Assembly: GCF_021789315.1 (NCBI RefSeq)
Contig: NZ_CP084561.1
Coordinates: 744,927-776,926 of the forward strand
Origin: Arthrobacter sp. FW305-BF8
GTDB taxonomy: Bacteria; Actinomycetota; Actinomycetes; Actinomycetales; Micrococcaceae
DNA: 32,000 nt
Direction: 5' to 3'
The translations under genes and the position numbers were made by a program. Below, one piece after another: positions 13,478 through 27,639 of this stretch (positions are counted from its first letter, which is position 1; each line of letters begins with the position of its first letter). The notes below the pieces were generated by a model. It had not been told where the DNA came from. It worked only from the letters and a program-made list of their open reading frames with translations, and made no database searches.

Positions 13478-13602
13478 GACGCTTCCTCACCTTTCGTCGG
13501 TTCCTTCCTAACGCGTCCTCGCCCGATGCGGGAGGGTTTGGCCTGAAGCGACGGGAACTGAGGAAGCGTTGCTGGAATTGTTGCGAAAGGTGAGGACGCG
13601 TC
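13478..13602. repeat. 125-nt nested imperfect palindrome in convergent spacer
   Basis: The outer arms gacgcttcctcacctttcg (13478-13496) and cgaaaggtgaggacgcgtc (13584-13602) pair at 18/19 positions. The inner arms aacgcgtcctc (13510-13520) and tgaggaagcgtt (13559-13570) pair at 10/11. The left arm also pairs perfectly over 11 bp with the inner right arm, which allows alternative folds. The right end touches the ABC ATPase stop codon. Confidence 0.7.
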
Positions 13603-14359
13603 AGGGGCCGTAGTGCACCACGATGGTCCGGCAGGGCGTCGTGCTGGGGACGCCGTCGCCGTCGTCGGAGTACGCGACGGTGCTCACGCGCACGCCGTAG
13701 AGGGCGGACAGCTCGGCGTCGGTCAGGAGTTCCGCAGCGTGTCCGGTCCGGACGCCCGAGCGGCCCAGCAGGACCACCCGGTCGGCAAGGTGCAGGGCGT
13801 GGTCGGGATGGTGAGTGCTGAGGAGCAGTGCCATGCCGTCGGCCATCAGTTCGCGCAGCAGCGTCAGGACGCGTGCCTGGTTCTTCAGGTCCAGGCCGGT
13901 GGCGGGCTCGTCCAGCACCAGGATGGGCGAGCCGGCGGCGATCGCCCGGGCGATGAGGATGAGCTGCTGCTCGCCCCCGCTGAGGGTGGGGAAACGCCGG
14001 TCCCGCAGCCCGGCCGCGCCCACCCGCTCCATCGCCTCCAGGGCTGCGTTGTGGTCGGATGGCCCGGGTGTCCGGAACACGCCAACGTGCCGCGCCCGCC
14101 CCATCAGGACCATGTCCAGCGCCCGGTAGGCGAAGGCGCTGCCGTGGGCCTGCGGGACGTAGCCGGCGCTCTCACTCCGCCGGACCGTTCCCTCCTGCGG
14201 GTCCAGCAACCCGGCGGCACAGCGCACCAGCGTGGTCTTGCCGCTGCCGTTGGGACCCAGCACGGCGGTGGCGGTCCCCGGCGGCACGCGGAAGCTGACG
14301 CCGCGGAACACCCAGTCCCGGGGCGAGTAGCCGAAGCCCACGGCGTCGAGTTCAAGCAC
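13601..14359 (-). CDS. ABC transporter ATP-binding protein, FecE/BtuD-type (metal-chelate importer)
   Basis: Walker A GPNGSGKTT, signature LSGGEQQLILIARAI and Walker B ILVLDEPATGLD are present. At 252 aa it has the typical size for this class. Confidence 0.85.
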   Translation of the reverse strand: MLELDAVGFGYSPRDWVFRGVSFRVPPGTATAVLGPNGSGKTTLVRCAAGLLDPQEGTVRRSESAGYVPQAHGSAFAYRALDMVLMGRARHVGVFRTPGPSDHNAALEAMERVGAAGLRDRRFPTLSGGEQQLILIARAIAAGSPILVLDEPATGLDLKNQARVLTLLRELMADGMALLLSTHHPDHALHLADRVVLLGRSGVRTGHAAELLTDAELSALYGVRVSTVAYSDDGDGVPSTTPCRTIVVHYGP

Positions 14360-15539
14360 TGTCCCAGACCTTCTCGCGGTTCCGGCGCAGGAGCAGGAAG
14401 AACACGGGCGCGCCGATCAGGGCCGTGAGGACGCCGAGCGGGATCTCCCCGGCGGTGGCCGTGCGGGCGATGGTGTCCACCAGAACGATGTAGGCGCCGC
14501 CAAGCAGGAAAGAGACGGGCAGGAGGACACGGTGGTCCGGCCCCACCCACATGCGGGCCAAGTGCGGGATCACCAGGCCCACCCAGCTGACGGCCCCGCT
14601 GACTGCCACCGCGCCGGCCACGATGAGCGCCACCGCCACGAGCACCACCCAGCGGAGCGGGCGCGGGCGCACGCCCAGGGCGGCCGCGTCCTCGTCGCCG
14701 AGGGACAGCACGTTGATCCGCCAGCGCAGGGCCACGAGGACCGCGGCCCCGCCAAGGACGGGGATCAGGGCCACCGCTACTTTGGCAAAGGTTGCCGTGG
14801 ATACGCTGCCCAGGAGCCAGAAGACGATAGCGGGCAGCGTGGTGTTGGGGTCCGCAATGTAGGTCACCAGGGCCACCAGGGCTGAAAAGAAGGACCCGGT
14901 GACCACGCCGCCGAGCACGATCATGAGCATCGGCGTCCCGGCGCGGCCCGAGGTGATCAGGAACAGGGTCCCGAGTGCCAGCAGCCCGCACACGAAGGAG
15001 CCGCCCACCAGGAGGAGCGGACCCAGCCCGAGCAGCAGCGCCAGGGCTCCGCCGAAGGATGCGCCGGCAGACACACCGATGATCTCGGGGCTGACGAGGG
15101 GATTGCGGAAAATGGCCTGCAGCGCTGCGCCGCCAATCGCCAGGCCGCCGCCCACCAGCAAGGCGAGCAGGATCCGCGGCAGCCGGACCAGCAGCACAAC
15201 GTTCTGTTCGGTGCCGCTGGCCTGAACCGGGACCGGGGCGAGCTGTGCGGCCAGGATCTGGACCACGTGGTCCAGCGGCACGCTGTAGCGACCCACCGCC
15301 AGCGCCAGCACCGCCACGGCGATAAGGAAGCAGGCACTGAGGGCAACGGGAACGACGACGGCGGGTTCCCGCCGTCGTTCTCCCGCCTCCCGTTTCCCAA
15401 GCCTGTGTTCCAGTGCCTGCCGCTCTTCAGCGCCGCCCGGGCCGGCAGCCGGGCCCGCCCGTGGCAGTGCCGGCTGCGCCGGTGGCAGTGCCGGGCGCAG
15501 CCGCCTGCCCAGCCGCGGGGAGCCCGCCTCATCAAGCAT
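14352..15539 (-). CDS. FecCD-family metal-chelate ABC permease
   Basis: A polytopic FecCD/BtuC-like hydrophobic core. The ATG at 15539 overlaps the SBP stop (ATGCTTGA). The product still carries a roughly 55-aa Arg/Pro-rich N-terminal extension, so the true start may lie further downstream. Confidence 0.8.
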   Translation of the reverse strand: MLDEAGSPRLGRRLRPALPPAQPALPRAGPAAGPGGAEERQALEHRLGKREAGERRREPAVVVPVALSACFLIAVAVLALAVGRYSVPLDHVVQILAAQLAPVPVQASGTEQNVVLLVRLPRILLALLVGGGLAIGGAALQAIFRNPLVSPEIIGVSAGASFGGALALLLGLGPLLLVGGSFVCGLLALGTLFLITSGRAGTPMLMIVLGGVVTGSFFSALVALVTYIADPNTTLPAIVFWLLGSVSTATFAKVAVALIPVLGGAAVLVALRWRINVLSLGDEDAAALGVRPRPLRWVVLVAVALIVAGAVAVSGAVSWVGLVIPHLARMWVGPDHRVLLPVSFLLGGAYIVLVDTIARTATAGEIPLGVLTALIGAPVFFLLLRRNREKVWDSA

Positions 15540-16665
15540 TGAACTGCCGGTAGTTGGCGGACTGCCCGTTCTCTGCGGTCCGGAGAATCTTGTCCAGCTC
15601 ATCGCCGGTGAGTTCGTGGTTGTACAGGAACCTGAAGTATTCGGAGGCCTTGCTCCGCACGGCAGACCTCTGCTGCGGGAAGGCGATGTCGCCCAGCCAG
15701 TGCCACATCAGCGCCGACTCCTGCCCGGGCGGATCCCAGCGGTAGCCGCCCAGCGGTACCTTGTACACGCGCTTCGAGCGGACCGCGGCCACGTTCTGCC
15801 ACACCGGGTCCGAGTAGATGTCCTGCGCCATGGCGGCGTCGAAGTTACCCAGCAGGATGACCTCGGGGTCCCAGCGCAGGACCTGCTCGATGTCCACGCC
15901 CAGCATGCCGGAACCGGTCAGCGGGTCCTTGCCGGTGGCCGGGTTGGAGCCGCCCACCAGCTTGATGTAGAAGTCGTTGTAGCTGTTGGCACCGGCCACC
16001 TTGAGCCCGCCGGTGAAGCGGTTGAAGTACAGGATGCTCGGGCCCTTGGACGCGCGCCCGGCGGCGAGGGACTTGACCTCGGCAAGCTCCCGGTCGCTCC
16101 GGGTCTTGAGCTCGGCGGCACGCTCGGGCTTGCCGAGCATCGCGGCGAACATGGCAACCCAGGCGTCCACATCCTCCTGCGTGCCGGAGTTCTTCAGCCC
16201 CAGAACCTGAAGCCCCGCCTTCTCCAGGGGCTCGATGAGCTGCGCGTCCGACCACTGGACCACCACGTCCGGGTTGAGGGCCCGGATACTTTCAACGTTG
16301 GCGGTGAAGTCCTGGGTGGCGATGTCGTGCGGTAGGTCCAGTGCGCCGGGAAACATGGAGCCCATGATGCCGTCGCGCATGGCCGTCCAGGAGGCGTTGT
16401 GCATGGCCGCGAGATGGTCGGCGCTGCGGTCGACGGCGACCAGCAGGGACGCCGACGGCATCGGGATGGTCACCACCCGGGCCACCGGCCAGTCAAAGGA
16501 CAGGGTCTTGCCGCGCTGGTCCGTGAGGCTGATGCTGTTGGTGCTGTCGGGAGGGGACGACGGCGGGGCGGTGCCGGATGCGCCGCATCCGGCCAGCAGG
16601 GCGGCGGAGCCGCCTGCAACAAACACCTGTAGGGCGGCGCGGCGGTTTAGGTCTGCAGCTGTCAT
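15532..16665 (-). CDS. Periplasmic-binding-protein (BtuF/FhuD class) lipoprotein with Tat-type signal
   Basis: The N-terminus MTAADLNRRAALQVFVAGGSAALLAGC contains a twin-arginine motif and a lipobox. It has class III SBP features and is the first gene of a 3-gene importer operon. Confidence 0.8.
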   Translation of the reverse strand: MTAADLNRRAALQVFVAGGSAALLAGCGASGTAPPSSPPDSTNSISLTDQRGKTLSFDWPVARVVTIPMPSASLLVAVDRSADHLAAMHNASWTAMRDGIMGSMFPGALDLPHDIATQDFTANVESIRALNPDVVVQWSDAQLIEPLEKAGLQVLGLKNSGTQEDVDAWVAMFAAMLGKPERAAELKTRSDRELAEVKSLAAGRASKGPSILYFNRFTGGLKVAGANSYNDFYIKLVGGSNPATGKDPLTGSGMLGVDIEQVLRWDPEVILLGNFDAAMAQDIYSDPVWQNVAAVRSKRVYKVPLGGYRWDPPGQESALMWHWLGDIAFPQQRSAVRSKASEYFRFLYNHELTGDELDKILRTAENGQSANYRQFNA

Positions 16666-16866
16666 CGTTGACTCCCTGCGCGTGGGTCTTCACAGCATCC
16701 GCTTCAAGGGCAGGGCTGTCAACGCTTTCTCCTGCGTTCGAGGACGGGCCGGTCCAGCTGCCCGGACCTGCCGGCCCGCGCCGTTCCCTTGTCCGCGCCT
16801 CGTTCCCTTGTCGGCGTCAGGGCCCGGTGCTACTTTCAGAGGACCCTTGCAGAAGGTGGCCACGGG

Positions 16867-17640
16867 ATGGTTATCGATGGTGCCCAGTTGTTCGTCCGCT
16901 ATGCCTATCCGCCCAATTCACGTGGCAGCTGCGGCCCGCCGGACAGCGACGCCCTGCTGCACTACGGGCAGTCCGGCGTCACGGACCAGGGGCTCCGCGA
17001 ACTTGCCAAGGGCTTTGCCGGCGCCTGGCCCTACCTCGAACTGATCGCCGGATCGCATGGCATCGCCGATCCGCTGGACGCCCGCGTGGTGGAGGCCTAC
17101 TGGGTGGGCAACAGCCTCCTGGATACCGTCGGCATCACCAACCTCGGCAATTCCATGGAGGACAGGTTCCGGGCGCGCACCGGGCGGCAGTTCCCGCATC
17201 TGGTGGAAGGGGTGCTGGCGGGCGGGGTCCCACACCACAGTTTCCACGTGTTCGAGATCTACCCGTGGCTGGGCCTGCTCCGCGACGAACGCCGGCACGC
17301 CACCGCGCTGAACGTGCTGGACAGGTGCAGGATCCGCTGGGGGCAGGTGCTCGCGATCTCCGGGGACGACGCCGTCGTGCGGTCCCGGCCCCTGGTGTGG
17401 GACGGGACAGCCCTGGACATCGGCGAGCCCGTGGTGGAATCAGCCAAGTTCGCCGTGAACGGGACCGGCTTCGTGGCCGGGCTGGCCGTGGGCGACGTCG
17501 TCTCACTGCACTGGGACTGGGTGTGCGACCGACTCTCCACCCACCAGCTGCAGCAGCTCAAGCACTTTACGGCGCGGCACCTCCGGATTGCCAACAGCGG
17601 CGTCGCACACCGCGGCGCAGCCATAGCGCTCGAACACTAG
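16867..17640 (+). CDS. Conserved hypothetical protein (I recall the family as DUF6390) with a HypC-like C-terminal segment
   Basis: The internal ATG at 16867 is preceded by gaaggtgg. The product begins MVIDGAQLFVRYAYPPN.. and has coding-like GC3. The C-terminal segment CRIRWGQVLAISGDDAVV...GDVVSLHWDWVCDRL resembles the HypC pattern MCLGIPGxVV...GDWVLVHVGFA. Confidence 0.6.
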   Translation: MVIDGAQLFVRYAYPPNSRGSCGPPDSDALLHYGQSGVTDQGLRELAKGFAGAWPYLELIAGSHGIADPLDARVVEAYWVGNSLLDTVGITNLGNSMEDRFRARTGRQFPHLVEGVLAGGVPHHSFHVFEIYPWLGLLRDERRHATALNVLDRCRIRWGQVLAISGDDAVVRSRPLVWDGTALDIGEPVVESAKFAVNGTGFVAGLAVGDVVSLHWDWVCDRLSTHQLQQLKHFTARHLRIANSGVAHRGAAIALEH

Positions 17641-17706: not shown

Positions 17707-18093
17707 TTACGGTGACTGCGGCGCCGGACCGTCGGGATGCTCGGGGGTCTTGACGGCCGTCGCATCACGGGCGGACGACTCGCCGGCTGGCCGGCCGGCA
17801 GGCGAATCATCGGTTCCCGTGTGCTCGCGTCCCGGTTCGGTGCCCTCCTCCTTGATGACGTCCTCGCCCCGGCGGGTGGTGCTGACACCGACGTCAACCG
17901 GAGCCGGTGCCGCGTCTTCAGGGGTTTCGTCCGCTCCGGGCTGGGCGGGTTCCTTCAGCGGCGGTTCGCTGCCGAAGGCCCGGGCTGTCCCTGGTGCGGT
18001 GCCCTCTGCGGCGCCCGACGCGGTGCCCTGTTCTTCGCCCTTCCCGGCGACCGTTTCCTCGTCGGCGGGGTCAGGCTGGTTCGTGGGTGACAT
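17707..18093 (-). CDS. Acidic, intrinsically disordered hypothetical protein (last gene of hydrogenase operon)
   Basis: A strong RBS (AAGGAGAGCAGCATG) lies inside the hypC 3' end, giving a 23-nt overlap. The 128-aa product is Pro/Glu/Ala/Gly/Thr-rich with no hydrophobic core. GC3 is coding-like. Confidence 0.5.
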   Translation of the reverse strand: MSPTNQPDPADEETVAGKGEEQGTASGAAEGTAPGTARAFGSEPPLKEPAQPGADETPEDAAPAPVDVGVSTTRRGEDVIKEEGTEPGREHTGTDDSPAGRPAGESSARDATAVKTPEHPDGPAPQSP

Positions 18094-18376
18094 GCTGCTC
18101 TCCTTGTGGTGGTTGTGCGGGCTGGGATCCGGGACCGGTGTCCGCAGGGCGGCCCATCAGCTCCAGTCCTTCCATGGCCTGTTCTGCGCCCGCGGCGTCT
18201 ACGCGTTCCAGCGCGAAGCCCATGTGGATCAGGACCCAGGTGCCGGGTTCCAGGGGCCCCTCATCCAGCAGCCCGATGTTGATCTTCCGGTGCACTCCGG
18301 CCACATCGACGAGTGCCAGTTGGCCGCCGTACCCCTCGAGGAGTTCAACGACCCTGCCGGGTATTCCGAGGCACAT
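18071..18376 (-). CDS. hypC: Hydrogenase assembly chaperone HypC/HupF family
   Basis: Has the N-terminal MCLGIPGRVVEL motif with the essential Cys2, and WVLIHMGFALERVD. A roughly 25-aa Pro/Gln-rich C-terminal tail follows. Confidence 0.9.
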   Translation of the reverse strand: MCLGIPGRVVELLEGYGGQLALVDVAGVHRKINIGLLDEGPLEPGTWVLIHMGFALERVDAAGAEQAMEGLELMGRPADTGPGSQPAQPPQGEQHVTHEPA

Positions 18377-18390
18377 GTACGGACACCGCC

Positions 18391-18900
18391 TTACTTTGAA
18401 GTGGAAAACCGGCCTGGAGTGGAAGAGGCCCGGCCGAGCAGGGACTCGACGGCGGCGGCGGCCTTGGGCACCGCATCGGCCACCGCCGGCGAAAGGCCGA
18501 TGCCTTCGGACAGGTCTGCGGGGACACAGCCCACCACGTACGTCACCGGCAGGCTGCCGCCCATGGACCGAAGCCGGCCCAGCACGGCCGCCGGGTCCAT
18601 GCCGTGGGGATCGAGCATGGCCCTGCTGTCCAGGTCCGCCGCGCTGACCCGTAGCACGCGGATGCTGCCGGGAGCCCAGCTACCGTCCGCAGGCACCGTG
18701 TCCACGAGGACCAGGGTGCCGACGCCGGCCAAAAGATCGTAGGCCAGGTGCATGCCGCGGATGCCGTAGTCCACCACGCGGACGCCGGTAGCCAGCGGCT
18801 GCGGATGGTCGGCGAGGTGACGTGCCACCTCGGGGCCGAAGCCGTCGTCGTGCAGGAACATGTTCCCGACGCCGGCCACGAGGACGCCGCCGGCGGTCAC
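18391..18900 (-). CDS. hupD: [NiFe]-hydrogenase maturation endopeptidase (HyaD/HupD/HybD family)
   Basis: Contains VLVAGVGNMFLHDDGFGPEVARHL and later DPHGM, matching the metal-ligand Asp/His pattern of this family. The GTG start overlaps the stop of the 39-aa ORF (GTGA). Confidence 0.85.
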   Translation of the reverse strand: MTAGGVLVAGVGNMFLHDDGFGPEVARHLADHPQPLATGVRVVDYGIRGMHLAYDLLAGVGTLVLVDTVPADGSWAPGSIRVLRVSAADLDSRAMLDPHGMDPAAVLGRLRSMGGSLPVTYVVGCVPADLSEGIGLSPAVADAVPKAAAAVESLLGRASSTPGRFSTSK

Positions 18901-19016
18901 ATCCGCCGCACTTTCATGTACCGCCGGATGTCCGGAACTGCGCGGATTCCGACGTAGATGCCCCAGAGTGCCATCGCTGCAAGCACCGAAACCGTGGCCA
19001 TTCCTATTGCCTTCAT
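18897..19016 (-). CDS. 39-aa single-TM microprotein (not in ORF track; below size cut-off)
   Basis: Hand translation of the minus strand gives MKAIGMATVSVLAAMALWGIYVGIRAVPDIRRYMKVRRM*. The ATG overlaps the upstream gene stop (TAATG) and the stop overlaps the protease GTG (GTGA). A purine-rich GGAGGGAAAGGAA lies 7-8 nt upstream. The product is one hydrophobic helix plus a basic tail. Confidence 0.65.
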   Translation of the reverse strand: MKAIGMATVSVLAAMALWGIYVGIRAVPDIRRYMKVRRM

Positions 19017-20413
19017 TACGGGTTTTCCTTTCCCTCCAGCGGCTCCAGTTCGTCAGGGGCGTAGTAGAAGGACCGGCCGTAGCCCTCGTGAAGATCGGCC
19101 GCCGGATCCTGCTCGAGGACGAGCCCGACGTGGGTGCTGCCGTCGACGTCGAAATGCACGCTGGTGACCCGCCCGGTCTGCCCGCCGAAGAACAGGTCCT
19201 GGGCGTCGGCGCGCCGGTTCGGGTGCACGCGCACCCGGCTGCCGCGGGCCACCGCGACGCCGTTGATCACGACGGCGTCCTGGTCCGGCCGGACACGGGC
19301 CTCCGCCTCCGGATTCCACCACGGAACGTCCTGGCTGGCCGTGCTCCACGATTCCGCCGGGGCATAGTCACCGGGATCCGCGGCGAACGCGCGCGGGTTC
19401 CGCAGGGCGCCGTGCAGCTGCTGCAGGTCCTCCGGCGACATCGCCTCACAGCGGTCGATGACGGCGGCGGCCCGCGAGTCCGTCGCCCGCGCCTCGGCCT
19501 TTTCCTCGTCGGTCAGCGTCAGTACCCGCAGCGTGAGGATCTCGTCGATCTCGGTGGAGTCATACAGCGCCACCGAACTTTCCGGGGCGACCGCGGGATG
19601 ATCGTAAAGAATGATGGGCGAGATCAGCAGCACGTCGGTCTGGCCTTCGGGGCCGGCCAGCACGGGCCAGCAGCGGTGCTGGGAACACAGCCCGGCTGCA
19701 GGCTGTGCCCACCCGGGCGGGTCCAGCAGCGAGACGAAATCCCCGTCCCGCACGCCGAGCAGCACGTGGGCGCCGATGAAGGAGGCCGCGGCCGCGTCCT
19801 GCCGGTTCCCGGCCGGCAGGGGACCGGCCGGCAGCGGATGAGCCGTGTTGGCCGCGGTGATGCTGAGCCGCAGCAGCCCGCCGGAATCTTCGGCGGCATG
19901 CAGCCGCAGTTCTCCGCGGAGAGCACGACGGCGGCGCACCAGCCGGCCGGCCGGCCTCCCGGCGTCGTCCTTGAGTTCCTCGACGTCGAGTCCCTCGGGT
20001 ACCTCCACCGGCAGGACCTGTCCGGCCCGGAGCTGGGCCACGGAGAACGGCCCGAACCCCACTTCCTGTTCTACGGCCTCGTCCCAGCTCAGCCAGTTCG
20101 CACCGCCCACGGTGAGGCTGTCCACGGGAGTGAACCCGCCGCCATCGTCCGCTTTTTCTGCCGTGCGCGTCTGCAGCTGCAGGAAGCGGAAATGGATTTC
20201 AAGCCCGGCCTCGGCGCCGGGGGCAAGCAGGCAGTCGGCGGACATGGACGGTTCCTCCCCGCTGCCGTCCTCCGCGGCGCCGGGCGGACCCAGGATCCCG
20301 AACTGCCAGCGGACCTGGTTCTTCTGGGCGGAGGCCCGGTAGGGGTAGAGCAGGTAGCCCTCGTAGAGGACGGCGTCCGCGACGGCCCGGGCAAGGGCCA
20401 GACTGGTGTTCAT
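19016..20413 (-). CDS. Conserved hypothetical protein of group 1h hydrogenase clusters (465 aa)
   Basis: The internal ATG (residue 71 of the tracked ORF) overlaps the upstream stop as ATGA. The product begins MNTSLALARAVADAVLYEGYLLYPYRASAQKNQVRWQFG. I recognise no catalytic motif. It is co-oriented with, and translationally coupled to, hydrogenase genes on both sides. Confidence 0.7.
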   Translation of the reverse strand: MNTSLALARAVADAVLYEGYLLYPYRASAQKNQVRWQFGILGPPGAAEDGSGEEPSMSADCLLAPGAEAGLEIHFRFLQLQTRTAEKADDGGGFTPVDSLTVGGANWLSWDEAVEQEVGFGPFSVAQLRAGQVLPVEVPEGLDVEELKDDAGRPAGRLVRRRRALRGELRLHAAEDSGGLLRLSITAANTAHPLPAGPLPAGNRQDAAAASFIGAHVLLGVRDGDFVSLLDPPGWAQPAAGLCSQHRCWPVLAGPEGQTDVLLISPIILYDHPAVAPESSVALYDSTEIDEILTLRVLTLTDEEKAEARATDSRAAAVIDRCEAMSPEDLQQLHGALRNPRAFAADPGDYAPAESWSTASQDVPWWNPEAEARVRPDQDAVVINGVAVARGSRVRVHPNRRADAQDLFFGGQTGRVTSVHFDVDGSTHVGLVLEQDPAADLHEGYGRSFYYAPDELEPLEGKENP

Positions 20414-21063
20414 GGCCGTTCCCCGGAAACATCCGCGGTGGCCTGCGCGAGGAGTTTCTCCACCGCCGATTCCCACGACGTGAGGCCCTCGGCGGACTTG
20501 TACCGGGCGAGTGCTGCCAGGACGTCGCGGTCCAGGCGGATCCATCCGGCGTTCGGGAAGTACTGGTCCATGAGGCTGCGCCAAGCGGCGACGGGCAGTT
20601 TGTAGGACGCCTCGAGGTCCCACGGCACCTGTTCCACCGTGAACCCGGTCTGCCCTTTGGTGAACACGGTGCCGGAGAACAGCAGCTCCAGCGGTATCTC
20701 GCCGTCGCGCAGCGCATGCAGGTATTTGGCGGCGGCCACGTCGAAATCAAACGTGCAGGGCAGCGGGAGGTCCGCCTCGGTGCTGCCCGTGAAACCCTGC
20801 ACCATGGTGCTGCACTGCATCCAGATGAACGACTTGAGCGTGCTGGGCCAGCGTCCGCGGTCTCCGAATAGGTCCAGCAGGCCCGTCTCCTCCTCGGGCG
20901 CGTACCCGCGGCGCTGGGGCAGGATCCGGACCTGGCAGCGCAGCGCCACGGCGTGCACCACGGCCCCGGTGCCTTCCGTCAGCTGCAGCCTGGCCGTCAG
21001 CTGCGGGGCGGCGGCGTAGGGTTCGGGCCGGATCTCCATCACGGCGAAGGAAAGCTCGGTCAC
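20410..21063 (-). CDS. Conserved hypothetical protein (recalled as DUF6084-like), hydrogenase-associated
   Basis: 217 aa, beginning (V)TELSFAVMEIRPEPYAAAPQLTARLQL. The GTG start overlaps the upstream stop (GTGA). No motif is recognised. Confidence 0.7.
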   Translation of the reverse strand: MTELSFAVMEIRPEPYAAAPQLTARLQLTEGTGAVVHAVALRCQVRILPQRRGYAPEEETGLLDLFGDRGRWPSTLKSFIWMQCSTMVQGFTGSTEADLPLPCTFDFDVAAAKYLHALRDGEIPLELLFSGTVFTKGQTGFTVEQVPWDLEASYKLPVAAWRSLMDQYFPNAGWIRLDRDVLAALARYKSAEGLTSWESAVEKLLAQATADVSGERP

Positions 21064-21773
21064 CGGAAGCCTCCCGTGCCGGCGGAATCTGCCGGCGCCG
21101 GAACGCTGCGGCGGTTGATCCGGTCGAAGAAGGAGGCGAGCTCATCGCGTGCCTCCTGGCCGCCGTCGAACCCCCGCCAGAGGCGGCGCAGCCGGCCCAC
21201 AAGCTCGTAGCAGGCGTCCACCGGAACGAGGTGGCAGTCCGCGGCGGCCCTGCCCGGGCCCGGGCCGCGGATCAGCAGCGCCTCCGTGTCCGGCGCCGCG
21301 AGGCCGAGGGCCGGGTTGCGGGCCAGCACGCTGTCCCAGGCGGCAAGCGGCAGTTCCGATTCGGTGGCCCCGGCCGGGCCCGGGTAGAACGCCACCGTGC
21401 GCCCGAGCTTGGAACTGCGGAAGAAAAACGCCAGGCCCACCGGAATTTCCAGTTCGTCCCACTGCCCAGGGCCGAGATCGAAGCCGGGGAAGGAGAAGTA
21501 TCTGTCCGGCACCGAGCGGTAGCGCAGATGGGCGGTCGCATCGGTGAAGAGGAGGTAGCAGGGCCGGCAGGTGCACATCATGGCGTGGCTCCCCAAGTCC
21601 ACCACGTGCTGGTGTGCCTCGGAAATCGGTTCGCCGCACATTTCGCAGCATTCCCCGGCGGCAGGAGCGGGCCGGTTCGCGGAAATCCGCCGCAGCAAGG
21701 CCACCGGCAAGGTGCCGTTGGCCTGGCCGGTTCCCGGGCCGCGCCCTGTACCTCCTCCGTTCTCCATGTTCAT
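21060..21773 (-). CDS. Cys-rich conserved hypothetical protein (recalled as DUF5947-like), hydrogenase-associated
   Basis: The ATG at 21773 lies 1 nt after the hhyE stop. The N-terminal region carries CCEMC-x20-CTCRPC plus three His residues, a probable metal site. The remaining roughly 170 aa are uncharacterised. Confidence 0.7.
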   Translation of the reverse strand: MNMENGGGTGRGPGTGQANGTLPVALLRRISANRPAPAAGECCEMCGEPISEAHQHVVDLGSHAMMCTCRPCYLLFTDATAHLRYRSVPDRYFSFPGFDLGPGQWDELEIPVGLAFFFRSSKLGRTVAFYPGPAGATESELPLAAWDSVLARNPALGLAAPDTEALLIRGPGPGRAAADCHLVPVDACYELVGRLRRLWRGFDGGQEARDELASFFDRINRRSVPAPADSAGTGGFR

Positions 21774-21774
21774 C

Positions 21775-23013
21775 TCAGCGGTCCTGTCCGCCGGCTGCCT
21801 GCAGTTCCGGGGCAATGCCGGGCGCCGGCGTCGCGATGGGCACGGACACGCCGGCTGCAGGTGCCGGTCCACGTGCCGCCTGAACGGACACCGCCGCAGA
21901 CACCGGGGCCGGCTCCGCCGGGGCCGGCTCCGCCGGGGCCGGCTCCGCCGGTTCCGGTCCAGGCGCCGCCGGGACGGGTTCCAGCCCGGCCGGTGTCACC
22001 AGCGGGATTGCCTGCACCGGCGTCACGGCTGCCGGGGCTGCCGGTACCGGGGCAACCGCCAACGGCGCGGACTGCACGGACACCGTCGGGACCGCCACGG
22101 ACATCACTCCGTTCCGGACCAGCAGCGGAAGCGGCTCCAGGTGCAGGTCCTTGTCCTCGAGGCAGGTGCCCGCCCGCCGCACGTCAAAGTGGCCGCGGCA
22201 GGTAGGGCAGGTGAGCAGGCCGCCGCCAACCGGTGCCGCGAGGGCGCGCTGCAGCACGGCGCCGGCCATGGAACCGGTGCAGCGCGGGCAGTAGTCGCGG
22301 TAGGCGTAGATGTCCTGGCCTGTCCGGCAGGCCAGCACCGCGTAGCCGCCGACCAGGAAGCCTGCCACCTCGCCGGGTTCGAGCCCGGCGATCTCCGGAA
22401 CCGGTTCCCACGTGCCGCCGGACATGTCGTGCCAGGATTCGGCGGGCGTGCCGCCCGCCGGATTGTTCACCCGGACCAGCAACGAATCCACCGGAATCAG
22501 CGCCGGGGCGCCCGGCTGCTTTTCCGCTTCGACGACGTCGATGGCGGTCACCTCGGGGGCGGCGTTCTGGATGGCCTCCTCAACGGCGTACTTGAGCGTG
22601 ACGGACGATGACGGGCACCCTTGGCAGGTGCCGAGCAGCTTGAGCCGCACCACGCCGTCGGGACTGATGCCTTCGAGCTCCACGTCGCCGCCGTGGGAGC
22701 CGAGGTAGGGCCGCACACTGTCCAGCGCCGCGGCCACCCGCGCCTCCAGCGAATGGGGGTGCAGCCCGTGGATCACCAGGAGGCCGGCCACCAGGCTGTC
22801 AGCGGTCAGCGCTTCCAGAGTGACGTCGTCGAGCTTTCCATGGGCCTGCAGGATCTCCATGATCCGCTGCAGTCCCGCGCCGTAAAGGTCTGTCACCTGC
22901 CGGACCAGGTCCTCGGCACGGCCGCGGGCCACCGCCCCGCCGGCGCCGAGGGCGTCAAGGAGTGTGCCTATTTGGTCGCCGCTCTGCAGCGCCGGCCGGT
23001 CCCCGCCGAGCAT
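21775..23013 (-). CDS. hhyE: NifU-domain / Rieske-fold-like putative Fe-S protein of Hhy clusters with Pro/Ala-rich tail
   Basis: Contains a NifU C-terminal domain (VRPYLGSHGGDVEL...LLGTCQGCPSSSVTLK). This is followed by a Rieske-like beta segment whose ligands are CPRC...CPTC instead of CxH...CxxH. A roughly 110-aa P/A/V-rich tail follows, including (AEPAP)x3 encoded by three perfect 15-bp repeats at 21905-21949. The gene starts 3 nt after the hhyL stop. Confidence 0.75.
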   Translation of the reverse strand: MLGGDRPALQSGDQIGTLLDALGAGGAVARGRAEDLVRQVTDLYGAGLQRIMEILQAHGKLDDVTLEALTADSLVAGLLVIHGLHPHSLEARVAAALDSVRPYLGSHGGDVELEGISPDGVVRLKLLGTCQGCPSSSVTLKYAVEEAIQNAAPEVTAIDVVEAEKQPGAPALIPVDSLLVRVNNPAGGTPAESWHDMSGGTWEPVPEIAGLEPGEVAGFLVGGYAVLACRTGQDIYAYRDYCPRCTGSMAGAVLQRALAAPVGGGLLTCPTCRGHFDVRRAGTCLEDKDLHLEPLPLLVRNGVMSVAVPTVSVQSAPLAVAPVPAAPAAVTPVQAIPLVTPAGLEPVPAAPGPEPAEPAPAEPAPAEPAPVSAAVSVQAARGPAPAAGVSVPIATPAPGIAPELQAAGGQDR

Positions 23014-23016
23014 GGC

Positions 23017-24810
23017 CTACTCGCCGGTCAGGGTCTGGGTGGGGGAGTGGAGCATGTCCAGCGTCTGCCCGTTGCCCAGGTACATGTGGACACCGCAGGG
23101 CAGGCAGGGATCGAAGCTGCGGACGGTCCGCATGATGTCGATGCCCTTGAAGTGCTCGCGGTCGTTCTCCTCGAAGATCGGCTGCCCCTGGACCGCGTCC
23201 TCATAGGGGCCGGCCACACCGTTGGAGTCGGTGGGGCTGGCATTCCATGGAGTGGGCGGGTAGGGGTGGTAGTTGGCGATCTTGCCGTCGCGGATCACCA
23301 TGTGGTGGGACAGGACTCCGCGGACCGCCTCGGTGAAGCCGCAGCCGATGCCTTCATCCGGGACCTCGAAGGTTTCCCACGTCTTGGTGCGTCCGGCCCG
23401 GATCTCCTCGAGGGCCTTTTCCGCGAAGTGCAGCGCCGCAGCCGCGGCGTAGGCCTGGAAGTAGGTGCGGGCGCGGTTGCGTTCGAGCGTGTTGCTCCAC
23501 TGCGGGATGTTCCACTCGAACGTGACGGGCCCCTTCAGAGCGGTCTTGGGCAGGTTGATCTGGACGCTCCTGCCGGTGGCCTTGAGGTAGCCGATGTCCA
23601 CGAGTCCGGCGAGCGCCGTGGCCCAAAGCCGTGCGAGTGGGCCGCCGCCGGTGTCCAGGGCGAGGTTGTCCTGGCCGTCGAACCAGCGCGGGGACATGAC
23701 CCAGCTGTACTTGTCCGAGAGGTCGCGCTTCTGCGGCCGCGGGTTGGTGTGCTGGTTCCACGGATGCCTGCGGTCCACCGGGTTGCCCAGCGGATCGTGG
23801 GTAACGAACATTTCCTGGTCTTCCCAGTCCTCGTAGTACGAAGAGCCGAGCATGATTCGCAGGCCCAGGTTGATGCGCACCAGGTCGGTGGTGACCAGTT
23901 TGCCATCCACCACCACGCCCGGGGTGACGAACATCTTCCGGCCCCACTCGGTCATGTCCTTGTATTCGAAGTTGCAGTAGTCCGGGTCCTGCAGCGACCC
24001 CCAGCAGCCCAGCAGCGTCCGCCGCAGCCCCACCTGCTCATAGCCCGGCAGTGCCTCGTAGAAGAAATCGAACAGGTCGTCGTGCATCGGGACGACCTTC
24101 TTCATGAACTCCACGTAGCGCATGAGCCGCGTGAGGTAGTCCGTCATCAGCTGGATGGTGGCCACCGTCCCCACGCCGCCCGGATAAAGCGTGGAGGGGT
24201 GCACATGGCGGCCCTCCATGAGGCAGAACATCTCGCGGGTGGCGCGGCTGACCTGCAGGGCCTCCCGGTAGAACTCGCCGGTGAAGGGGTTCAGCGAGCG
24301 CATGATGTCGGCGATGGTCCGGTAACCGTGGTCCGCCTCATGCGGTGCCCGGGTGTTTTCGGCCTTGGCGAGGACGCCGGGGTTCGTTTCGGAGACCATC
24401 TTTTCGCAGTAGTCCACGCCAACGAGGTTTTCCTGGAAGATGTTGTGGTCGAACATGTACTCGGCGGCTTCGCCCAGGTTGACGATCCATTCGCCCAGGC
24501 TCGGGGGCTTGACGCCGTAAGCCATGTTTTGCGTATAGCAGGAGCAGGTGGCATGGTTGTCGCCGCAGATCCCGCAGATGCGGCTGGTGATGAAGTGGGC
24601 GTCCCTTGGGTCCTTGCCTTTCATGAAGAGGGAGTAGCCGCGGAAGATCGAGGAAGTGCTCTTGCATTCCACGACCTGGTTGTTCTCGAAATCGATCTTT
24701 GTGTAGATGCCGAGGCTGCCGACGATCCTGGTGATGGGATCCCAGTTCATTTCCACCAGGTTGCTGTTGCCCGCTCCGCTTCCGGAACCCATGGGAATTG
24801 TTGACGTCAT
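23017..24810 (-). CDS. hhyL: [NiFe]-hydrogenase large subunit, group 1h (formerly group 5)
   Basis: The L1 motif TSRICGICGDNH and the L2 motif SFDPCLPCGVH are present, and I recall these as the published group 5/1h signatures. A 22-aa extension after the terminal His (MYLGNGQTLDMLHSPTQTLTGE) is consistent with endopeptidase processing. Confidence 0.95.
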   Translation of the reverse strand: MTSTIPMGSGSGAGNSNLVEMNWDPITRIVGSLGIYTKIDFENNQVVECKSTSSIFRGYSLFMKGKDPRDAHFITSRICGICGDNHATCSCYTQNMAYGVKPPSLGEWIVNLGEAAEYMFDHNIFQENLVGVDYCEKMVSETNPGVLAKAENTRAPHEADHGYRTIADIMRSLNPFTGEFYREALQVSRATREMFCLMEGRHVHPSTLYPGGVGTVATIQLMTDYLTRLMRYVEFMKKVVPMHDDLFDFFYEALPGYEQVGLRRTLLGCWGSLQDPDYCNFEYKDMTEWGRKMFVTPGVVVDGKLVTTDLVRINLGLRIMLGSSYYEDWEDQEMFVTHDPLGNPVDRRHPWNQHTNPRPQKRDLSDKYSWVMSPRWFDGQDNLALDTGGGPLARLWATALAGLVDIGYLKATGRSVQINLPKTALKGPVTFEWNIPQWSNTLERNRARTYFQAYAAAAALHFAEKALEEIRAGRTKTWETFEVPDEGIGCGFTEAVRGVLSHHMVIRDGKIANYHPYPPTPWNASPTDSNGVAGPYEDAVQGQPIFEENDREHFKGIDIMRTVRSFDPCLPCGVHMYLGNGQTLDMLHSPTQTLTGE

Positions 24811-24840: not shown

Positions 24841-25899
24841 TTACCAGGTGCGCCGGGCCCCGGTGAGGAGCTCGGGTCCGGGCCGGCGCCACTTGGGCTC
24901 CTGGTCCAGGGTGTGCGTCGTGATGCCCCTGAGCGTCCGGATGGCGGAGCCGTAGGGCCGGATGGTGCTGGTGGAAAGCTTGCCGCCGGGAGGCTCATCC
25001 ATGAAGGGCATGAACTTGTCCGGGAAGCCCGGCATGGTGCAGCCGATGCAGATGCCGCCGACGTTGGGGCAACCGCCGATGCCGTTCATCCACCCGCGCT
25101 TAGGCACGTTGCACTTCACCACGGGGCCCCAGCAGCCGAGCTTGACGATGCACTTGGGGGAGCCGTACTCGGTGGCGAAGTCGCCCTGCTCGTAGTAGCC
25201 GGCCCGGTCGCAGCCCTCGTGGACCGTCTTGCCGAACAGCCAGGTGGGTCGCAGTGCCTCATCCAGCGGAATCATCGGTGCCTGGCCGGTGGCCTGATAG
25301 AGCAGGTACGTCATGGTTTCGGAGAGGTTGTCAGGCTGGATCGGGCATCCGGGCACGCACACGATGGGGATGCCGGCCTTGGACTTCCAGTCGTAGCCGA
25401 GGTAGTCCGGCACACCCATGGCGCCGGTTGGGTTGCCGGCCATGGCGTGGATGCCGCCGTAGGTTGCGCAGGTTCCGGCGGCAATGATCGCGGTGGCCTT
25501 GGGTGCCAGGCGGTCCAGCCACTCACTGGTGGTGATGGGCTGGCCGGTCTCGAGGTCGTTGCCGAACCCGCACCAGTAGCCGCCGGGGTCATGGAGCTTC
25601 TCGTTGGGAATGGATCCCTCGACCACCAGCACGAACGGTTCAAGTTCGCCCCGGTCCGCCTTGCGGAACCATTCCAGGAAGTCGTCGGCCCCTTCCTGCG
25701 GGCCGCATTCAAAGTCGATCAGTGGCCAGTGCATGGCGATCTTCGGCAGGCCGGGCAGCGCCCCGAGGGCGATTTCCTCGACGCTCGGCTGGGTGGCCGC
25801 GGTCAGGGCCACCGAGTCGCCGTCACAACTGAGCCCTGCGTTGATCCACAGCACGTGGATAAGGGCTTCTTCGGCCTTGAGGGAAGTTTCCGTAGGCAT
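24841..25899 (-). CDS. hhyS: [NiFe]-hydrogenase small subunit, group 1h, no Tat signal
   Basis: Fe-S cluster Cys patterns are present (LSCDGDS, GTCATYGG, CVPGCP, CNVPKRGW, GGCPNVGGICIGCTMPGFPD). The N-terminus MPTETSLKAEEALIHVLW lacks a twin-arginine leader, as expected for cytosolic group 1h enzymes. Confidence 0.92.
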   Translation of the reverse strand: MPTETSLKAEEALIHVLWINAGLSCDGDSVALTAATQPSVEEIALGALPGLPKIAMHWPLIDFECGPQEGADDFLEWFRKADRGELEPFVLVVEGSIPNEKLHDPGGYWCGFGNDLETGQPITTSEWLDRLAPKATAIIAAGTCATYGGIHAMAGNPTGAMGVPDYLGYDWKSKAGIPIVCVPGCPIQPDNLSETMTYLLYQATGQAPMIPLDEALRPTWLFGKTVHEGCDRAGYYEQGDFATEYGSPKCIVKLGCWGPVVKCNVPKRGWMNGIGGCPNVGGICIGCTMPGFPDKFMPFMDEPPGGKLSTSTIRPYGSAIRTLRGITTHTLDQEPKWRRPGPELLTGARRTW

Positions 25900-25929: not shown

Positions 25930-26826
25930 TCAGTGTGCTTGTGTCAGGGTGCCGGTCAGGGGTTCTGACGCGGCTGTCCCGGAGGTTGGCGCCGCCGCTT
26001 GGGGGGTGGCGCCGTCGAGCCAGCCGTACCAGGCGGCGAGGCCTTCGCCGGTGGCGGCGGACAGCGTGAGGAATTCGGCCCGCGGATTGATCTGCCGGAT
26101 CCGGTGCAGGCATCGGTCGACGTCGAACTCGACGTAGGGGAGCAGGTCCGACTTGTTGACGATCACGAGGTCGGCTGCCATGAACATGTGCGGGTATTTC
26201 TGGGGTTTGTCATCACCTTCCGTTACCGAGACGATCACCACCTTGGCCGTTTCGCCGAGGTCAAACAGCGCGGGGCAGACGAGGTTGCCCACATTTTCAA
26301 TGAAGACCGTGGAGCCCGGCTCTGGCGACAGCGCGTCGAGGCCGTGCCGCAGCATGTCGGCGTCGAGATGGCAGCCGGCTCCCGTGTTGATCTGGATGAC
26401 CGGGCGCCCGGTGGCGCGGATGCGGTCAGCGTCGAGGGACGTCTCCTGGTCCCCTTCGATGACTCGCGCGTCCAGGCGCCTGCCCAGTTCGGTCAGCGTG
26501 CGGACCAGGAGGGTGGTCTTGCCGGCACCCGGTGAACTCATGACGTTGAAAGCCCGCACCCCCCGGCCGGCAAGCCAGCCGCGGTTCGTGGCGGCCAGCA
26601 GGTTGTTCTTGGCCAGCAGATTCTGCTCGAGCACGATGGTTTCTGGGCCCGCCGCCGCATGGTGGTGCCCGTCCGTGTGCCCTTGGGGGGAGTGGTCGTG
26701 GGTGTACGTGCGCCCGTGCTCATCGGTGTGGCTGTGCGGGTGCCCCTGCCCGGGTGTGTGCAGTTCGCCTGCGAGGTTTGAAATGCGGGTGCCGGCCTCG
26801 TCGCCGCAACCGCATGTTGTACACAT
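25930..26826 (-). CDS. hypB: Hydrogenase nickel-incorporation GTPase HypB (His-rich N-terminus)
   Basis: Has the N-terminal MCTTCGCG metal site, a His-rich stretch (GHPHSHTDEHGRTYTHDHSPQGHTDGHHH), the P-loop SSPGAGKTTLL and the G-domain motifs ENVGNLVCP and NKSDL. Confidence 0.92.
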   Translation of the reverse strand: MCTTCGCGDEAGTRISNLAGELHTPGQGHPHSHTDEHGRTYTHDHSPQGHTDGHHHAAAGPETIVLEQNLLAKNNLLAATNRGWLAGRGVRAFNVMSSPGAGKTTLLVRTLTELGRRLDARVIEGDQETSLDADRIRATGRPVIQINTGAGCHLDADMLRHGLDALSPEPGSTVFIENVGNLVCPALFDLGETAKVVIVSVTEGDDKPQKYPHMFMAADLVIVNKSDLLPYVEFDVDRCLHRIRQINPRAEFLTLSAATGEGLAAWYGWLDGATPQAAAPTSGTAASEPLTGTLTQAH

Positions 26827-26829
26827 GCC

Positions 26830-27159
26830 CTATGCCACCTCCACGGACATCAGCATCAGCTCGCGGCCGCTGAGGACTTCGACGTCCGCGCTTCCGCAAG
26901 GGCAAAGCAGAATGAGATCGCTCAGGGTGAATTCGTCCTGGCAGCTGCGGCACCGTCCGCGGCCCCGCGGTTCGTCGATCTGCAGCCGCGCGCCAGCCAG
27001 CGGGGTGCCGGCCGCTGCCACGTCAAAACAAAAACGCACGGCATCAGCCAGTACGCCGGAAAGGGGACCGATCCTAAGGTTGACCGCAGTGACCGTCCGT
27101 TCACCTGTGCGGTCCAGAACGGCGTCGACAAGGCCCTGCGTGATGGAGAGTTCGTGCAT
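26830..27159 (-). CDS. hypA: Hydrogenase nickel insertion protein HypA
   Basis: The internal ATG gives a 109-aa product beginning MHELSITQGLVDAVL, which is the canonical MHE Ni-binding N-terminus. Zn-site cysteines CRSC...CPCG are present. The upstream 97 codons of the tracked ORF look non-coding. Confidence 0.88.
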   Translation of the reverse strand: MHELSITQGLVDAVLDRTGERTVTAVNLRIGPLSGVLADAVRFCFDVAAAGTPLAGARLQIDEPRGRGRCRSCQDEFTLSDLILLCPCGSADVEVLSGRELMLMSVEVA

Positions 27160-27333
27160 GATCGCGCCCCTTTTTGCCAAGATAGGCTCGCGCCAGAGAA
27201 AACGCAACCGTCCGGATTTCCGCCCGCCGTTCGCCGGTTCGAACGGACAGCTACGGCCCTGCCGGAGCCGGATTTTGGGGCCACAGGTGTCCGTTCGCGC
27301 TGTGTCCTTCCCACCCTTCGCTAGGGTTGGAGG

Positions 27334-27639
27334 ATGCCGTCCTTTCAGACCAGACTCAAGATCACCGGGCTGAAGCCGGGCAACCCTCCCGAAGCCGTAA
27401 TGGACACCGCCGTGGAGGCGCTGGGGTCGCGGCATCATGTGGAGTCGCACCAGCTGGAACTGGCCGGGGGCGTGCCGCAGCTTAACCTGCGCTTCCTCGT
27501 GGAGCCCACCGAATACAACGGTGAGAACAGCGCGGCGCGGGAATCGGCAGCAGTGATGCGCGACGCCGTCGAACGCGTTGCGCTGACAGGCTCGCTTTCG
27601 GTACTCCGCCGCAGCCGCGGCCGCTGGGCGCCCGTCTAA
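27334..27639 (+). CDS. Hypothetical protein divergent from the hydrogenase operon
   Basis: 101-aa ORF with strongly coding-like GC3. GGAGG directly abuts the ATG, which is poor spacing, so the start is uncertain (alternative Met23 at 27400). No homology is recognised. Confidence 0.4.
   Translation: MPSFQTRLKITGLKPGNPPEAVMDTAVEALGSRHHVESHQLELAGGVPQLNLRFLVEPTEYNGENSAARESAAVMRDAVERVALTGSLSVLRRSRGRWAPV

Follow-up and report, generated by a model that had tools for sequence, protein, structure and literature searches.

Why does the operon of a group 1h [NiFe]-hydrogenase carry, between its structural genes and its maturation protease, three genes to which no function is assigned? Group 1h hydrogenases account for much of the atmospheric H2 that soils take up, and these genes are the most consistently linked uncharacterised genes in 1h operons, which makes them an obvious candidate for a part in the assembly of the enzyme in air or in electron transfer to the respiratory chain. 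We approached the question from a stretch of 32,000 nucleotides (nt) of high-GC (68%) actinobacterial DNA from Arthrobacter sp. FW305-BF8, referred to here as the window, in which a chain of hydrogenase genes is read on the minus strand in the order hypA-hypB-hhyS-hhyL-hhyE-ORF1-ORF2-ORF3-39-aa peptide-hupD-hypC (Table 1). The three open reading frames ORF1, ORF2 and ORF3 encode proteins of 237, 217 and 465 amino acids (aa), respectively. We find that this trio is dedicated to group 1h hydrogenases, and we lean towards the view that its products are soluble, cytoplasmic, group-1h-specific assembly factors acting in air rather than permanent subunits of the enzyme, a view that we hold at a little under an even chance.

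The trio has been recognised before, and the copy in the window is an unremarkable orthologue of a gene set already on record but uncharacterised. The initial annotation of this DNA had pointed to the trio as undescribed biology; however, according to later papers that cite the original work, the genes were flagged as early as 2013-2015 as PHG066-069 and hhaABC. Since their existence and conservation are already on record, the window adds a further orthologous copy and no discovery. What the present analysis adds is a seven-residue motif in ORF1, gene fusions that link ORF2, ORF3 and the protease, and a set of predicted folds without confident solved relatives, the SH3-like domain of ORF3 excepted. 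Our literature search found no function assigned to the trio, no deletion or biochemical data and no structure of an Hhy complex, in line with the earlier statement that no biochemical role is established; DUF5947, the family of ORF1, was not mentioned in the literature retrieved, and DUF6084, the family of ORF2, only in an unrelated context.

A conserved gene set dedicated to group 1h hydrogenases

ORF1, ORF2 and ORF3 are real genes. Their GC content at third codon positions (GC3), 0.82-0.88, is that usual for coding frames of the window, and all three are present on the minus strand between hhyE and the protease gene, as the initial annotation had it. The claim that each start overlaps or abuts the preceding stop also holds: hhyE and ORF1 are joined as TGA-g-ATG, ORF1 and ORF2 as GTGA, and ORF2 and ORF3 as ATGA, and the pattern continues with TAATG between ORF3 and the peptide gene and GTGA between the peptide gene and hupD. 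Because these junctions overlap or abut, we regard the whole stretch from hhyE to hupD as translationally coupled. ORF1 could also start further upstream (GTG 21872), the ATG at 21773 being the one that abuts the hhyE stop, and the GTG with which ORF2 starts, overlapping the ORF1 stop, has GGGAGG upstream. From such coupling the initial annotation had derived a stoichiometric subcomplex with the structural subunits, which is overstated. The Protein Data Bank (PDB) has a single group 1h entry (5AA5) and no homologue of ORF1-3, and that structure, the Methylacidiphilum enzyme (from an organism without the trio) and the Hhy activity band of Mycobacterium smegmatis (reported in a table of 'selected' proteins) list HhyL and HhyS only; on this indirect evidence, none of the three proteins is found among stable subunits.

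Each member of the trio has homologues in the thousands: 6245 for ORF1, 3934 for ORF2 and, for ORF3, 3886 cluster representatives at 50% identity (E<=1e-3). ORF1 is 65-70% identical across Actinomycetota, and the closest protein matches of the window come from Arthrobacter and other Micrococcaceae (89-95% identity), with Arthrobacter sp. ISL-65 providing the nearest genome locus. A genome scan with one genome per species returned at least 594 loci with an ORF3 relative, and synteny was read in the best 80. The order hypA-hypB-hhyS-hhyL-hhyE-ORF1-ORF2-ORF3-(peptide)-hupD-hypC-(hypC)-DUF6390 is held in 80/80 of them as far as the contigs extend. These loci come from Arthrobacter, Mycobacterium, Rhodococcus, Nocardia, Nocardioides, Micromonosporaceae, Pseudonocardiales and one Sericytochromatia metagenome-assembled genome (MAG). 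The 4-nt overlaps recur among them, between ORF1 and ORF2 in 49 of 78 loci and between ORF2 and ORF3 in 62 of 80.

We further surveyed 72,556 plasmids, calling the group 1h large subunit at E<1e-30. HhyL of this group was found on 13 plasmids, and homologues of ORF1 and ORF3 were found in exactly those same 13 records, with ORF2 homologues in 11 of them. Co-occurrence with hhyL, which had been proposed as a check, thus holds beyond close relatives and across phyla, and the same arrangement is seen on the proteobacterial plasmids Cupriavidus necator pHG1 and a Methylocystis parvus plasmid. Given the synteny and the exact plasmid co-occurrence of ORF1 and ORF3 with HhyL, we conclude, as had been suggested from the sequence, that the trio is dedicated to the group 1h hydrogenase and does not consist of passengers.

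On pHG1, the genes PHG064-070 of the 'actinobacterial' (group 1h/5) hydrogenase cluster follow the order of the window (small subunit, large subunit, NifU, DUF5947, DUF6084, 476-aa hypothetical, protease) and likewise keep the start/stop overlaps; unlike in the window, HhyE is a NifU-only protein of 192 aa there and the membrane peptide encoded after ORF3 is absent. By its position after hhyL/hhyE and before hupD, and by its co-occurrence with the group 1h large subunit, the window trio is the accessory gene set known as hhaABC. MSMEG_2717-2715 of M. smegmatis and hhaABC of Thermomicrobium roseum are the same set, a correspondence taken from the literature and not from alignment. Islam et al. 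(ISME J 2019) describe the 'conserved hypothetical proteins hhaABC' of T. roseum on the structural operon, with 5.5-fold induction in stationary phase. The trio is nevertheless not universal among 1h enzymes, because Schmitz et al. found homologous genes to be absent from Methylacidiphilum fumariolicum, whose operon encodes two other membrane proteins and whose active, membrane-associated 1h enzyme purifies as HhyL and HhyS.

Protein families, motifs and predicted folds

ORF1 and ORF2 belong to the DUF5947 and DUF6084 families, and the names that the initial annotation had given them were correct. Both Pfam matches are full-length (ORF1, 242 bits against a cut-off of 25, model positions 2-176 of 177; ORF2, 322 bits against 25, positions 1-211 of 213), and each protein is 44% identical to its pHG1 counterpart, a 'DUF5947 family protein' and a DUF6084 protein, respectively. 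Both are soluble and acidic and lack any hydrophobic stretch that would suffice for a membrane helix, and ORF2 has no cofactor motif.

ORF1 carries a putative metal-binding Cys5His2 motif near its N-terminus (Table 1). Its seven residues, together with C188, are invariant among the window protein, C. necator PHG067, the Methylocystis homologue and five diverse Actinomycetota, and the seven are invariant or at least 90% conserved in 82 sequences. A CCxxC-x20-CxCxxC cluster with three nearby His residues had been noticed here earlier; the window protein does read CCEMC-x20-CTCRPC with His54, His56 and His64, and a metal-type motif is conserved, but C42 (the first Cys of the 'CC') and His64 are not conserved across phyla, nor is C180. 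Like rubredoxins and zinc ribbons, the motif has two CxxC knuckles, to which it adds a further Cys and an HxH pair. It matches neither a ferredoxin nor a Rieske pattern, no Pfam family other than DUF5947 matches ORF1 at E<=10, and a comparison with the rubredoxin HoxR gave an hhalign probability of 0.4%; neither canonical motif nor fold places ORF1 among the iron-sulfur (Fe-S) electron-transfer proteins of ferredoxin, Rieske or rubredoxin type. In the AlphaFold2 model, the C-terminal alpha/beta domain (residues ~90-230) has a predicted local distance difference test score (pLDDT) of about 90, and the score of the Cys-rich N-terminal part is low. Because the Cys-rich region is modelled with low confidence, its knuckles could still form a rubredoxin-like pair. 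A Foldseek search of the PDB with this model gave no confident match (best E=0.23) and no redox-protein structural neighbour.

No Pfam or NCBIfam family matches ORF3 above threshold. It is 36% identical to the 476-aa pHG1 hypothetical over residues 10-463 (E=2e-79), which places it in the HhaC/PHG069-like family, and it is acidic, without a cofactor motif or a hydrophobic segment of membrane-helix length. Its AlphaFold2 model has an overall pLDDT of 70 and contains two confidently shaped parts. The central beta-sandwich found weak jelly-roll or lectin-like matches only in Foldseek; a match to DrmA (E=7e-6) had a template-modelling (TM) score of 0.22 and a root-mean-square deviation (rmsd) of 21.7 and was not interpreted. 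The C-terminal SH3-like barrel matches PetP (2n5u, 7r0w) with probability 1.0, a TM score of 0.63-0.75 on the target and an rmsd of 2.2-2.5, a resemblance between model and structure that we take to indicate fold class only and to imply no function. In the Foldseek searches with the ORF1 and ORF3 models, a kind of search that had been proposed as a check, this domain returned the sole confident match. BFVD yielded small phage proteins of similar form and nothing further of use. Separately, a Pfam family of phage tail-assembly chaperones matched ORF3 below threshold (E=4e-4, 20.8 bits against a cut-off of 25), which we regard as noise or at most a hint.

The most conserved parts of ORF3 lie outside these two domains. 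In a diverse alignment of 55 sequences, the N-terminal signature has the invariant columns E18, G19, L22, P24, Y25, N32, R35 and G39, with pLDDT <60. The most conserved segment of all, which is acidic and predicted to be helical, is invariant at L263, P266, D271, D285, E288, D290, L293, L295, E304, D312, H334 and G335, with pLDDT 29-62. That the best conserved segments are the least confidently modelled when the protein is taken alone fits partner-dependent binding motifs, and from the models we infer that both may be binding surfaces that become ordered only with a partner.

Homology searches, gene fusions and a membrane peptide

Neither phmmer nor profile searches retrieved a sequence relative of ORF1, ORF2 or ORF3 from the PDB, and no Pfam or NCBIfam match places any of them among the known [NiFe]-hydrogenase maturation factors (HypA, HypC/HoxL, HoxO/HyaE, HoxQ/HupH, HoxT/HybE, HoxV/HupK, HypX and HoxM). 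Two candidate relationships were rejected. Paralogy within the trio, prompted by an 'EIP...LP.AAW' likeness between ORF1 and ORF2, gave hhalign probabilities <1% for all three pairs, and so did the three comparisons with the cytochrome b HoxZ, in which the targets were single sequences.

Gene fusions offer another view of how these proteins may be related. Among the 150 best representatives of the ORF3 family (50%-identity clusters), ORF3 is fused seamlessly to a HupD/HycI protease in seven, and DUF6084 is fused to an ORF3-like protein in one (P0481); the fusion proteins on record are P0386, P0399, P0411, P0428, P0444, P0449, P0455 and P0481. ORF1 and ORF2 share a single frame in one MAG (locus L068, 8334-9977), which may be an indel artefact of the assembly. 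Taken jointly, the natural fusions would chain ORF1-ORF2-ORF3-HupD.

Between ORF3 and hupD lies the 39-aa DUF6893 peptide, which is basic (isoelectric point (pI) 11.5) and predicted to span the membrane once (maximum 19-residue hydropathy 1.88). It was detected in 44 of the 80 loci, and the median gap of 130 nt between ORF3 and hupD leaves room for it in most; in C. necator, where it is absent, ORF3 and hupD overlap by 4 nt. The peptide is the sole predicted membrane element that the operon encodes, and in Actinomycetota the enzyme associates with the membrane.

A possible role in the assembly of the enzyme

We favour assembly factors as the reading of the trio. ORF1 would bind a metal or an Fe-S centre through its invariant Cys5His2 motif and, beside the NifU-type HhyE, would build, deliver or protect the Fe-S clusters of the small subunit, or hand over a metal. 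ORF2 and ORF3 may form a scaffold or chaperone that grips an immature subunit, with the beta-sandwich and SH3-like domains of ORF3 as the body and its unmodelled invariant N-terminal and acidic helical motifs as the partner-binding surfaces. The enzyme would be released from the scaffold at about the time when HupD cuts a C-terminal tail of 22 residues from HhyL. The partners and the metal are our inferences, as is the direction of action. Such a tail is present: read from the sequence, HhyL continues for 22 aa after DPCLPCGVH, and the large-subunit chain of 5AA5, from C. necator, ends at query residue 575, i.e., at the end of DPCLPCGVH; this extension is the predicted substrate of the protease.

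Several lines of evidence count for an assembly role. The trio lies between the NifU protein and hupD-hypC, with hypA-hypB upstream, so that the operon is largely a maturation operon, and natural fusions join ORF3 to the maturation protease. Preparations of the mature enzyme list two subunits only. The M. smegmatis orthologue of hhyE is essential for Hhy activity even with the artificial acceptor nitroblue tetrazolium, which its authors regard as fitting an assembly role, and a deletion that an artificial acceptor does not bypass points the same way for the neighbouring trio. Huc was purified as three subunits, with HucM co-purifying, and HucE is unmentioned in the Huc paper. Finally, between the window and C. 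necator the trio is 36-44% identical, comparable to the maturation proteins (HupD 46%, HypC 43%, HypA 41%, HypB 48%, and the NifU domain in the 41-48% band) and below the 68-78% of the catalytic subunits (HhyS 68%; HhyL against HofG 78%). The trio thus appears to diverge at the rate of maturation proteins.

The favoured reading is built on a functional analogy with the accessory set of the group 1d membrane-bound hydrogenase (MBH) of C. necator (HoxL/O/Q/R/T/V), which also consists of type-specific soluble proteins whose genes accompany the structural genes of an enzyme produced in air, and which includes a rubredoxin-type metal protein and subunit chaperones. The analogy has its differences. 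The MBH accessory genes come after the protease gene whereas the window trio precedes it, the two sets show no sequence relationship (hhalign probability <1%), and, unlike in the MBH, the 1h small subunit has no twin-arginine translocation (Tat) signal for a chaperone of the HoxO/Q type to guard: the HhyS N-terminus of the window reads without such a signal peptide.

Several points weigh against assembly factors. A divergent MBH accessory protein was sought and rejected, all 27 hhalign comparisons with HoxM/L/O/Q/R/T/V, HypA and HypX having a probability <1% (with single-sequence targets). In T. roseum the trio genes sit on the structural operon, induced 5.5x, against 3.1x for the maturation operon. 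The slot of the trio, between the large subunit and the protease, is that of the cytochrome b (HoxZ/HyaC) in classical operons; unlike cytochrome b, the trio has no transmembrane segment and no homology to HoxZ, and unlike HucM in Huc it has not been seen in purified enzyme. Fusions that come from metagenome gene calls could partly be artefacts. Lastly, pSCAT of Streptantibioticus cattleyicolor (locus L083, 554000-576000) carries a rearranged 1h cluster, hypA-hypB-ORF3-hhyS-hhyL-NifU-ORF1, with an hhyE that is NifU-only, and no DUF6084 is found within 22 kb nor anywhere on this 1.8-Mb replicon. Methylacidiphilum without the trio and S. cattleyicolor without DUF6084 are thus natural 'knock-outs', the latter a test case for the dispensability of ORF2.

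Alternative readings

The best-surviving alternative, which we consider possible but doubtful, is that the trio forms an electron-output and membrane-coupling module. ORF1, as a redox Fe-S protein, would accept electrons from the distal HhyS cluster, either without an intermediate or through HhyE. With ORF2 and ORF3 as an adaptor and, in Actinomycetota, the DUF6893 peptide as the anchor, menaquinone would be reduced. Such a module would parallel the cytochrome b of group 1d and the HucM of Huc, and it would occupy the same operon slot as the former. The 1h enzyme has to be linked to the quinone pool in some way, and the literature has proposed the ORF1 family (PHG067/MSMEG_2717) as the physiological acceptor of Hhy, a part that the invariant Cys5His2 motif would suit; however, that motif follows no standard ferredoxin or Rieske pattern, the ORF1 model has no redox-protein neighbour, and ORF2 and ORF3 offer neither cofactor motifs nor hydrophobic segments. 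The 1h enzymes associate with the membrane without having an anchor, and detachment costs them their high affinity; a conserved single-pass membrane peptide follows ORF3, but C. necator has the trio and no peptide, and its enzyme is reported to be cytoplasmic and of low affinity. Methylacidiphilum exchanges the trio for other membrane proteins, a kind of swap that characterises redox partners more than maturases, and the T. roseum trio travels on the structural operon; on the other side, the trio is unreported in any purified or gel-resolved 1h enzyme, and a permanent electron-transfer subunit fused to a maturation protease would be odd. In its most specific form, HhyE, the trio and, in Actinomycetota, the DUF6893 peptide would constitute an unrecognised module that wires the 1h hydrogenase to menaquinone, with folds unrelated to cytochrome b and HucM and with the ORF1 Cys5His2 site as the missing acceptor; this we think unlikely.

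It is improbable, in our view, that the trio mainly protects or repairs the enzyme in air, a reading that is a hybrid of assembly and electron output. Here the trio and HhyE would keep the active site or the Fe-S clusters of the assembled enzyme working when O2 is present. They might, for instance, donate reducing equivalents that reactivate it or renew clusters damaged over long dormancy, by analogy with the part ascribed to the rubredoxin-type HoxR in the O2-tolerant MBH. The host enzyme is active in ambient air and during long starvation, the ORF1 motif contains a rubredoxin-like CxxCG...CxxC arrangement for which a rubredoxin precedent is cited in the literature, and a NifU domain is encoded next door. 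This reading would also fit the absence of the trio from purified enzyme and its non-essentiality in some lineages. Against it, the trio has no homology to HoxR or other MBH factors, and protection or repair alone leaves the protease fusions unexplained.

That the three are passenger genes or mis-called ORFs with no hydrogenase role, as high-GC DNA yields many spurious ORFs, has next to no chance of being right, being effectively refuted by the conservation data (synteny in all 80 loci and across phyla, and exact plasmid co-occurrence with group 1h HhyL), by coding-type GC3 with strong family matches, and by co-induction with the hydrogenase.

The gene cluster and its surroundings

Table 1. 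Coordinates of the hydrogenase gene cluster, of segments within the trio and of neighbouring genes, numbered from the first letter of the window
Feature	Coordinates	Strand	Evidence or remark
ORF1 (HhaA-like, DUF5947)	21060-21773	-	237 aa; Pfam PF19372 E=3e-72
ORF1 putative metal-binding motif C43-E-x-C46-x7-H54-x-H56-x10-C67-x-C69-x2-C72	21558-21647	-	alignment
ORF2 (HhaB-like, DUF6084; PHG068)	20410-21063	-	217 aa; Pfam PF19562 E=2e-96
ORF3 (HhaC-like; PHG069)	19016-20413	-	465 aa; no Pfam/NCBIfam family
ORF3 N-terminal signature (residues 12-39, ADAVLYEGYLLYPYRxSxxKNxxRWQFG)	20297-20380	-	alignment
ORF3 central beta-sandwich (residues ~40-260)	19634-20296	-	predicted; pLDDT 84-96 over most
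ORF3 most conserved segment (residues 263-340, LxSPIILYDHPxxAPES...DxTEIDEILxLRxxTLTxxEKxEARxTD)	19394-19627	-	acidic, predicted helical
ORF3 C-terminal SH3-like beta-barrel (residues ~375-460)	19034-19291	-	Foldseek on model
39-aa peptide (DUF6893), between ORF3 and hupD	18897-19016	-	Pfam PF21833 E=4e-9
hupD-type large-subunit maturation endopeptidase	18391-18900	-	Pfam HycI E=3e-12; TIGR00072 E=2e-32
hypC/hupF chaperone	18071-18376	-	Pfam PF01455 E=9e-22
hhyE: NifU domain, Rieske-like/2xCxxC domain and Pro/Ala-rich tail	21775-23013	-	NifU E=1e-22; Rieske_2 E=9e-6, slightly below cut-off
hhyL, group 1h [NiFe]-hydrogenase large subunit	23017-24810	-	Pfam
hhyS, small subunit	24841-25899	-	Pfam
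hypB, upstream of hhyS	25930-26826	-	Pfam cobW/HypB E=8e-25
hypA, upstream of hypB	26830-27450	-	HypA domain covers ORF residues 98-205 only
128-aa ORF after hypC	17707-18093	-	no Pfam match
DUF6390 gene adjoining the cluster	16789-17640	+	E=1e-91
ABC importer genes (ATPase, permease, binding protein)	13601-16665	-	FecCD/periplasmic-binding-protein type

Within the cluster, the true start of hypA probably lies further downstream than 27450. Residues ~310-412 of HhyE form a long, repetitive Pro/Ala-rich tail (PAEPAPAEPAPAEPAP...), absent from the NifU-only protein of C. necator, which looks like a flexible linker or a low-complexity extension. RefSeq labels the C. necator 1h small subunit (PHG064/HofK; locus L081, 4187-5242) 'hydrogenase expression protein HypE', and gives the small subunit of Methylocystis the same label. 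As PHG064/HofK shares 68% identity with the window HhyS, the label appears to be a propagated mis-annotation.

Beyond hypC, the 128-aa ORF is very acidic (pI 4.2) and rich in Pro, Ala, Glu and Gly, has homologues only in the closest Arthrobacter and Pseudarthrobacter loci, and could be either a disordered protein or an open frame that is not coding. In most of the 80 loci, hypC is followed by a DUF6390 homologue, which shares its strand in mycobacteria and nocardiae and is divergent in Arthrobacter; DUF6390 is a further uncharacterised family that travels with group 1h hydrogenases. Just past the hydrogenase cluster lies an ATP-binding cassette (ABC) importer that, from its family, could supply iron or another metal.

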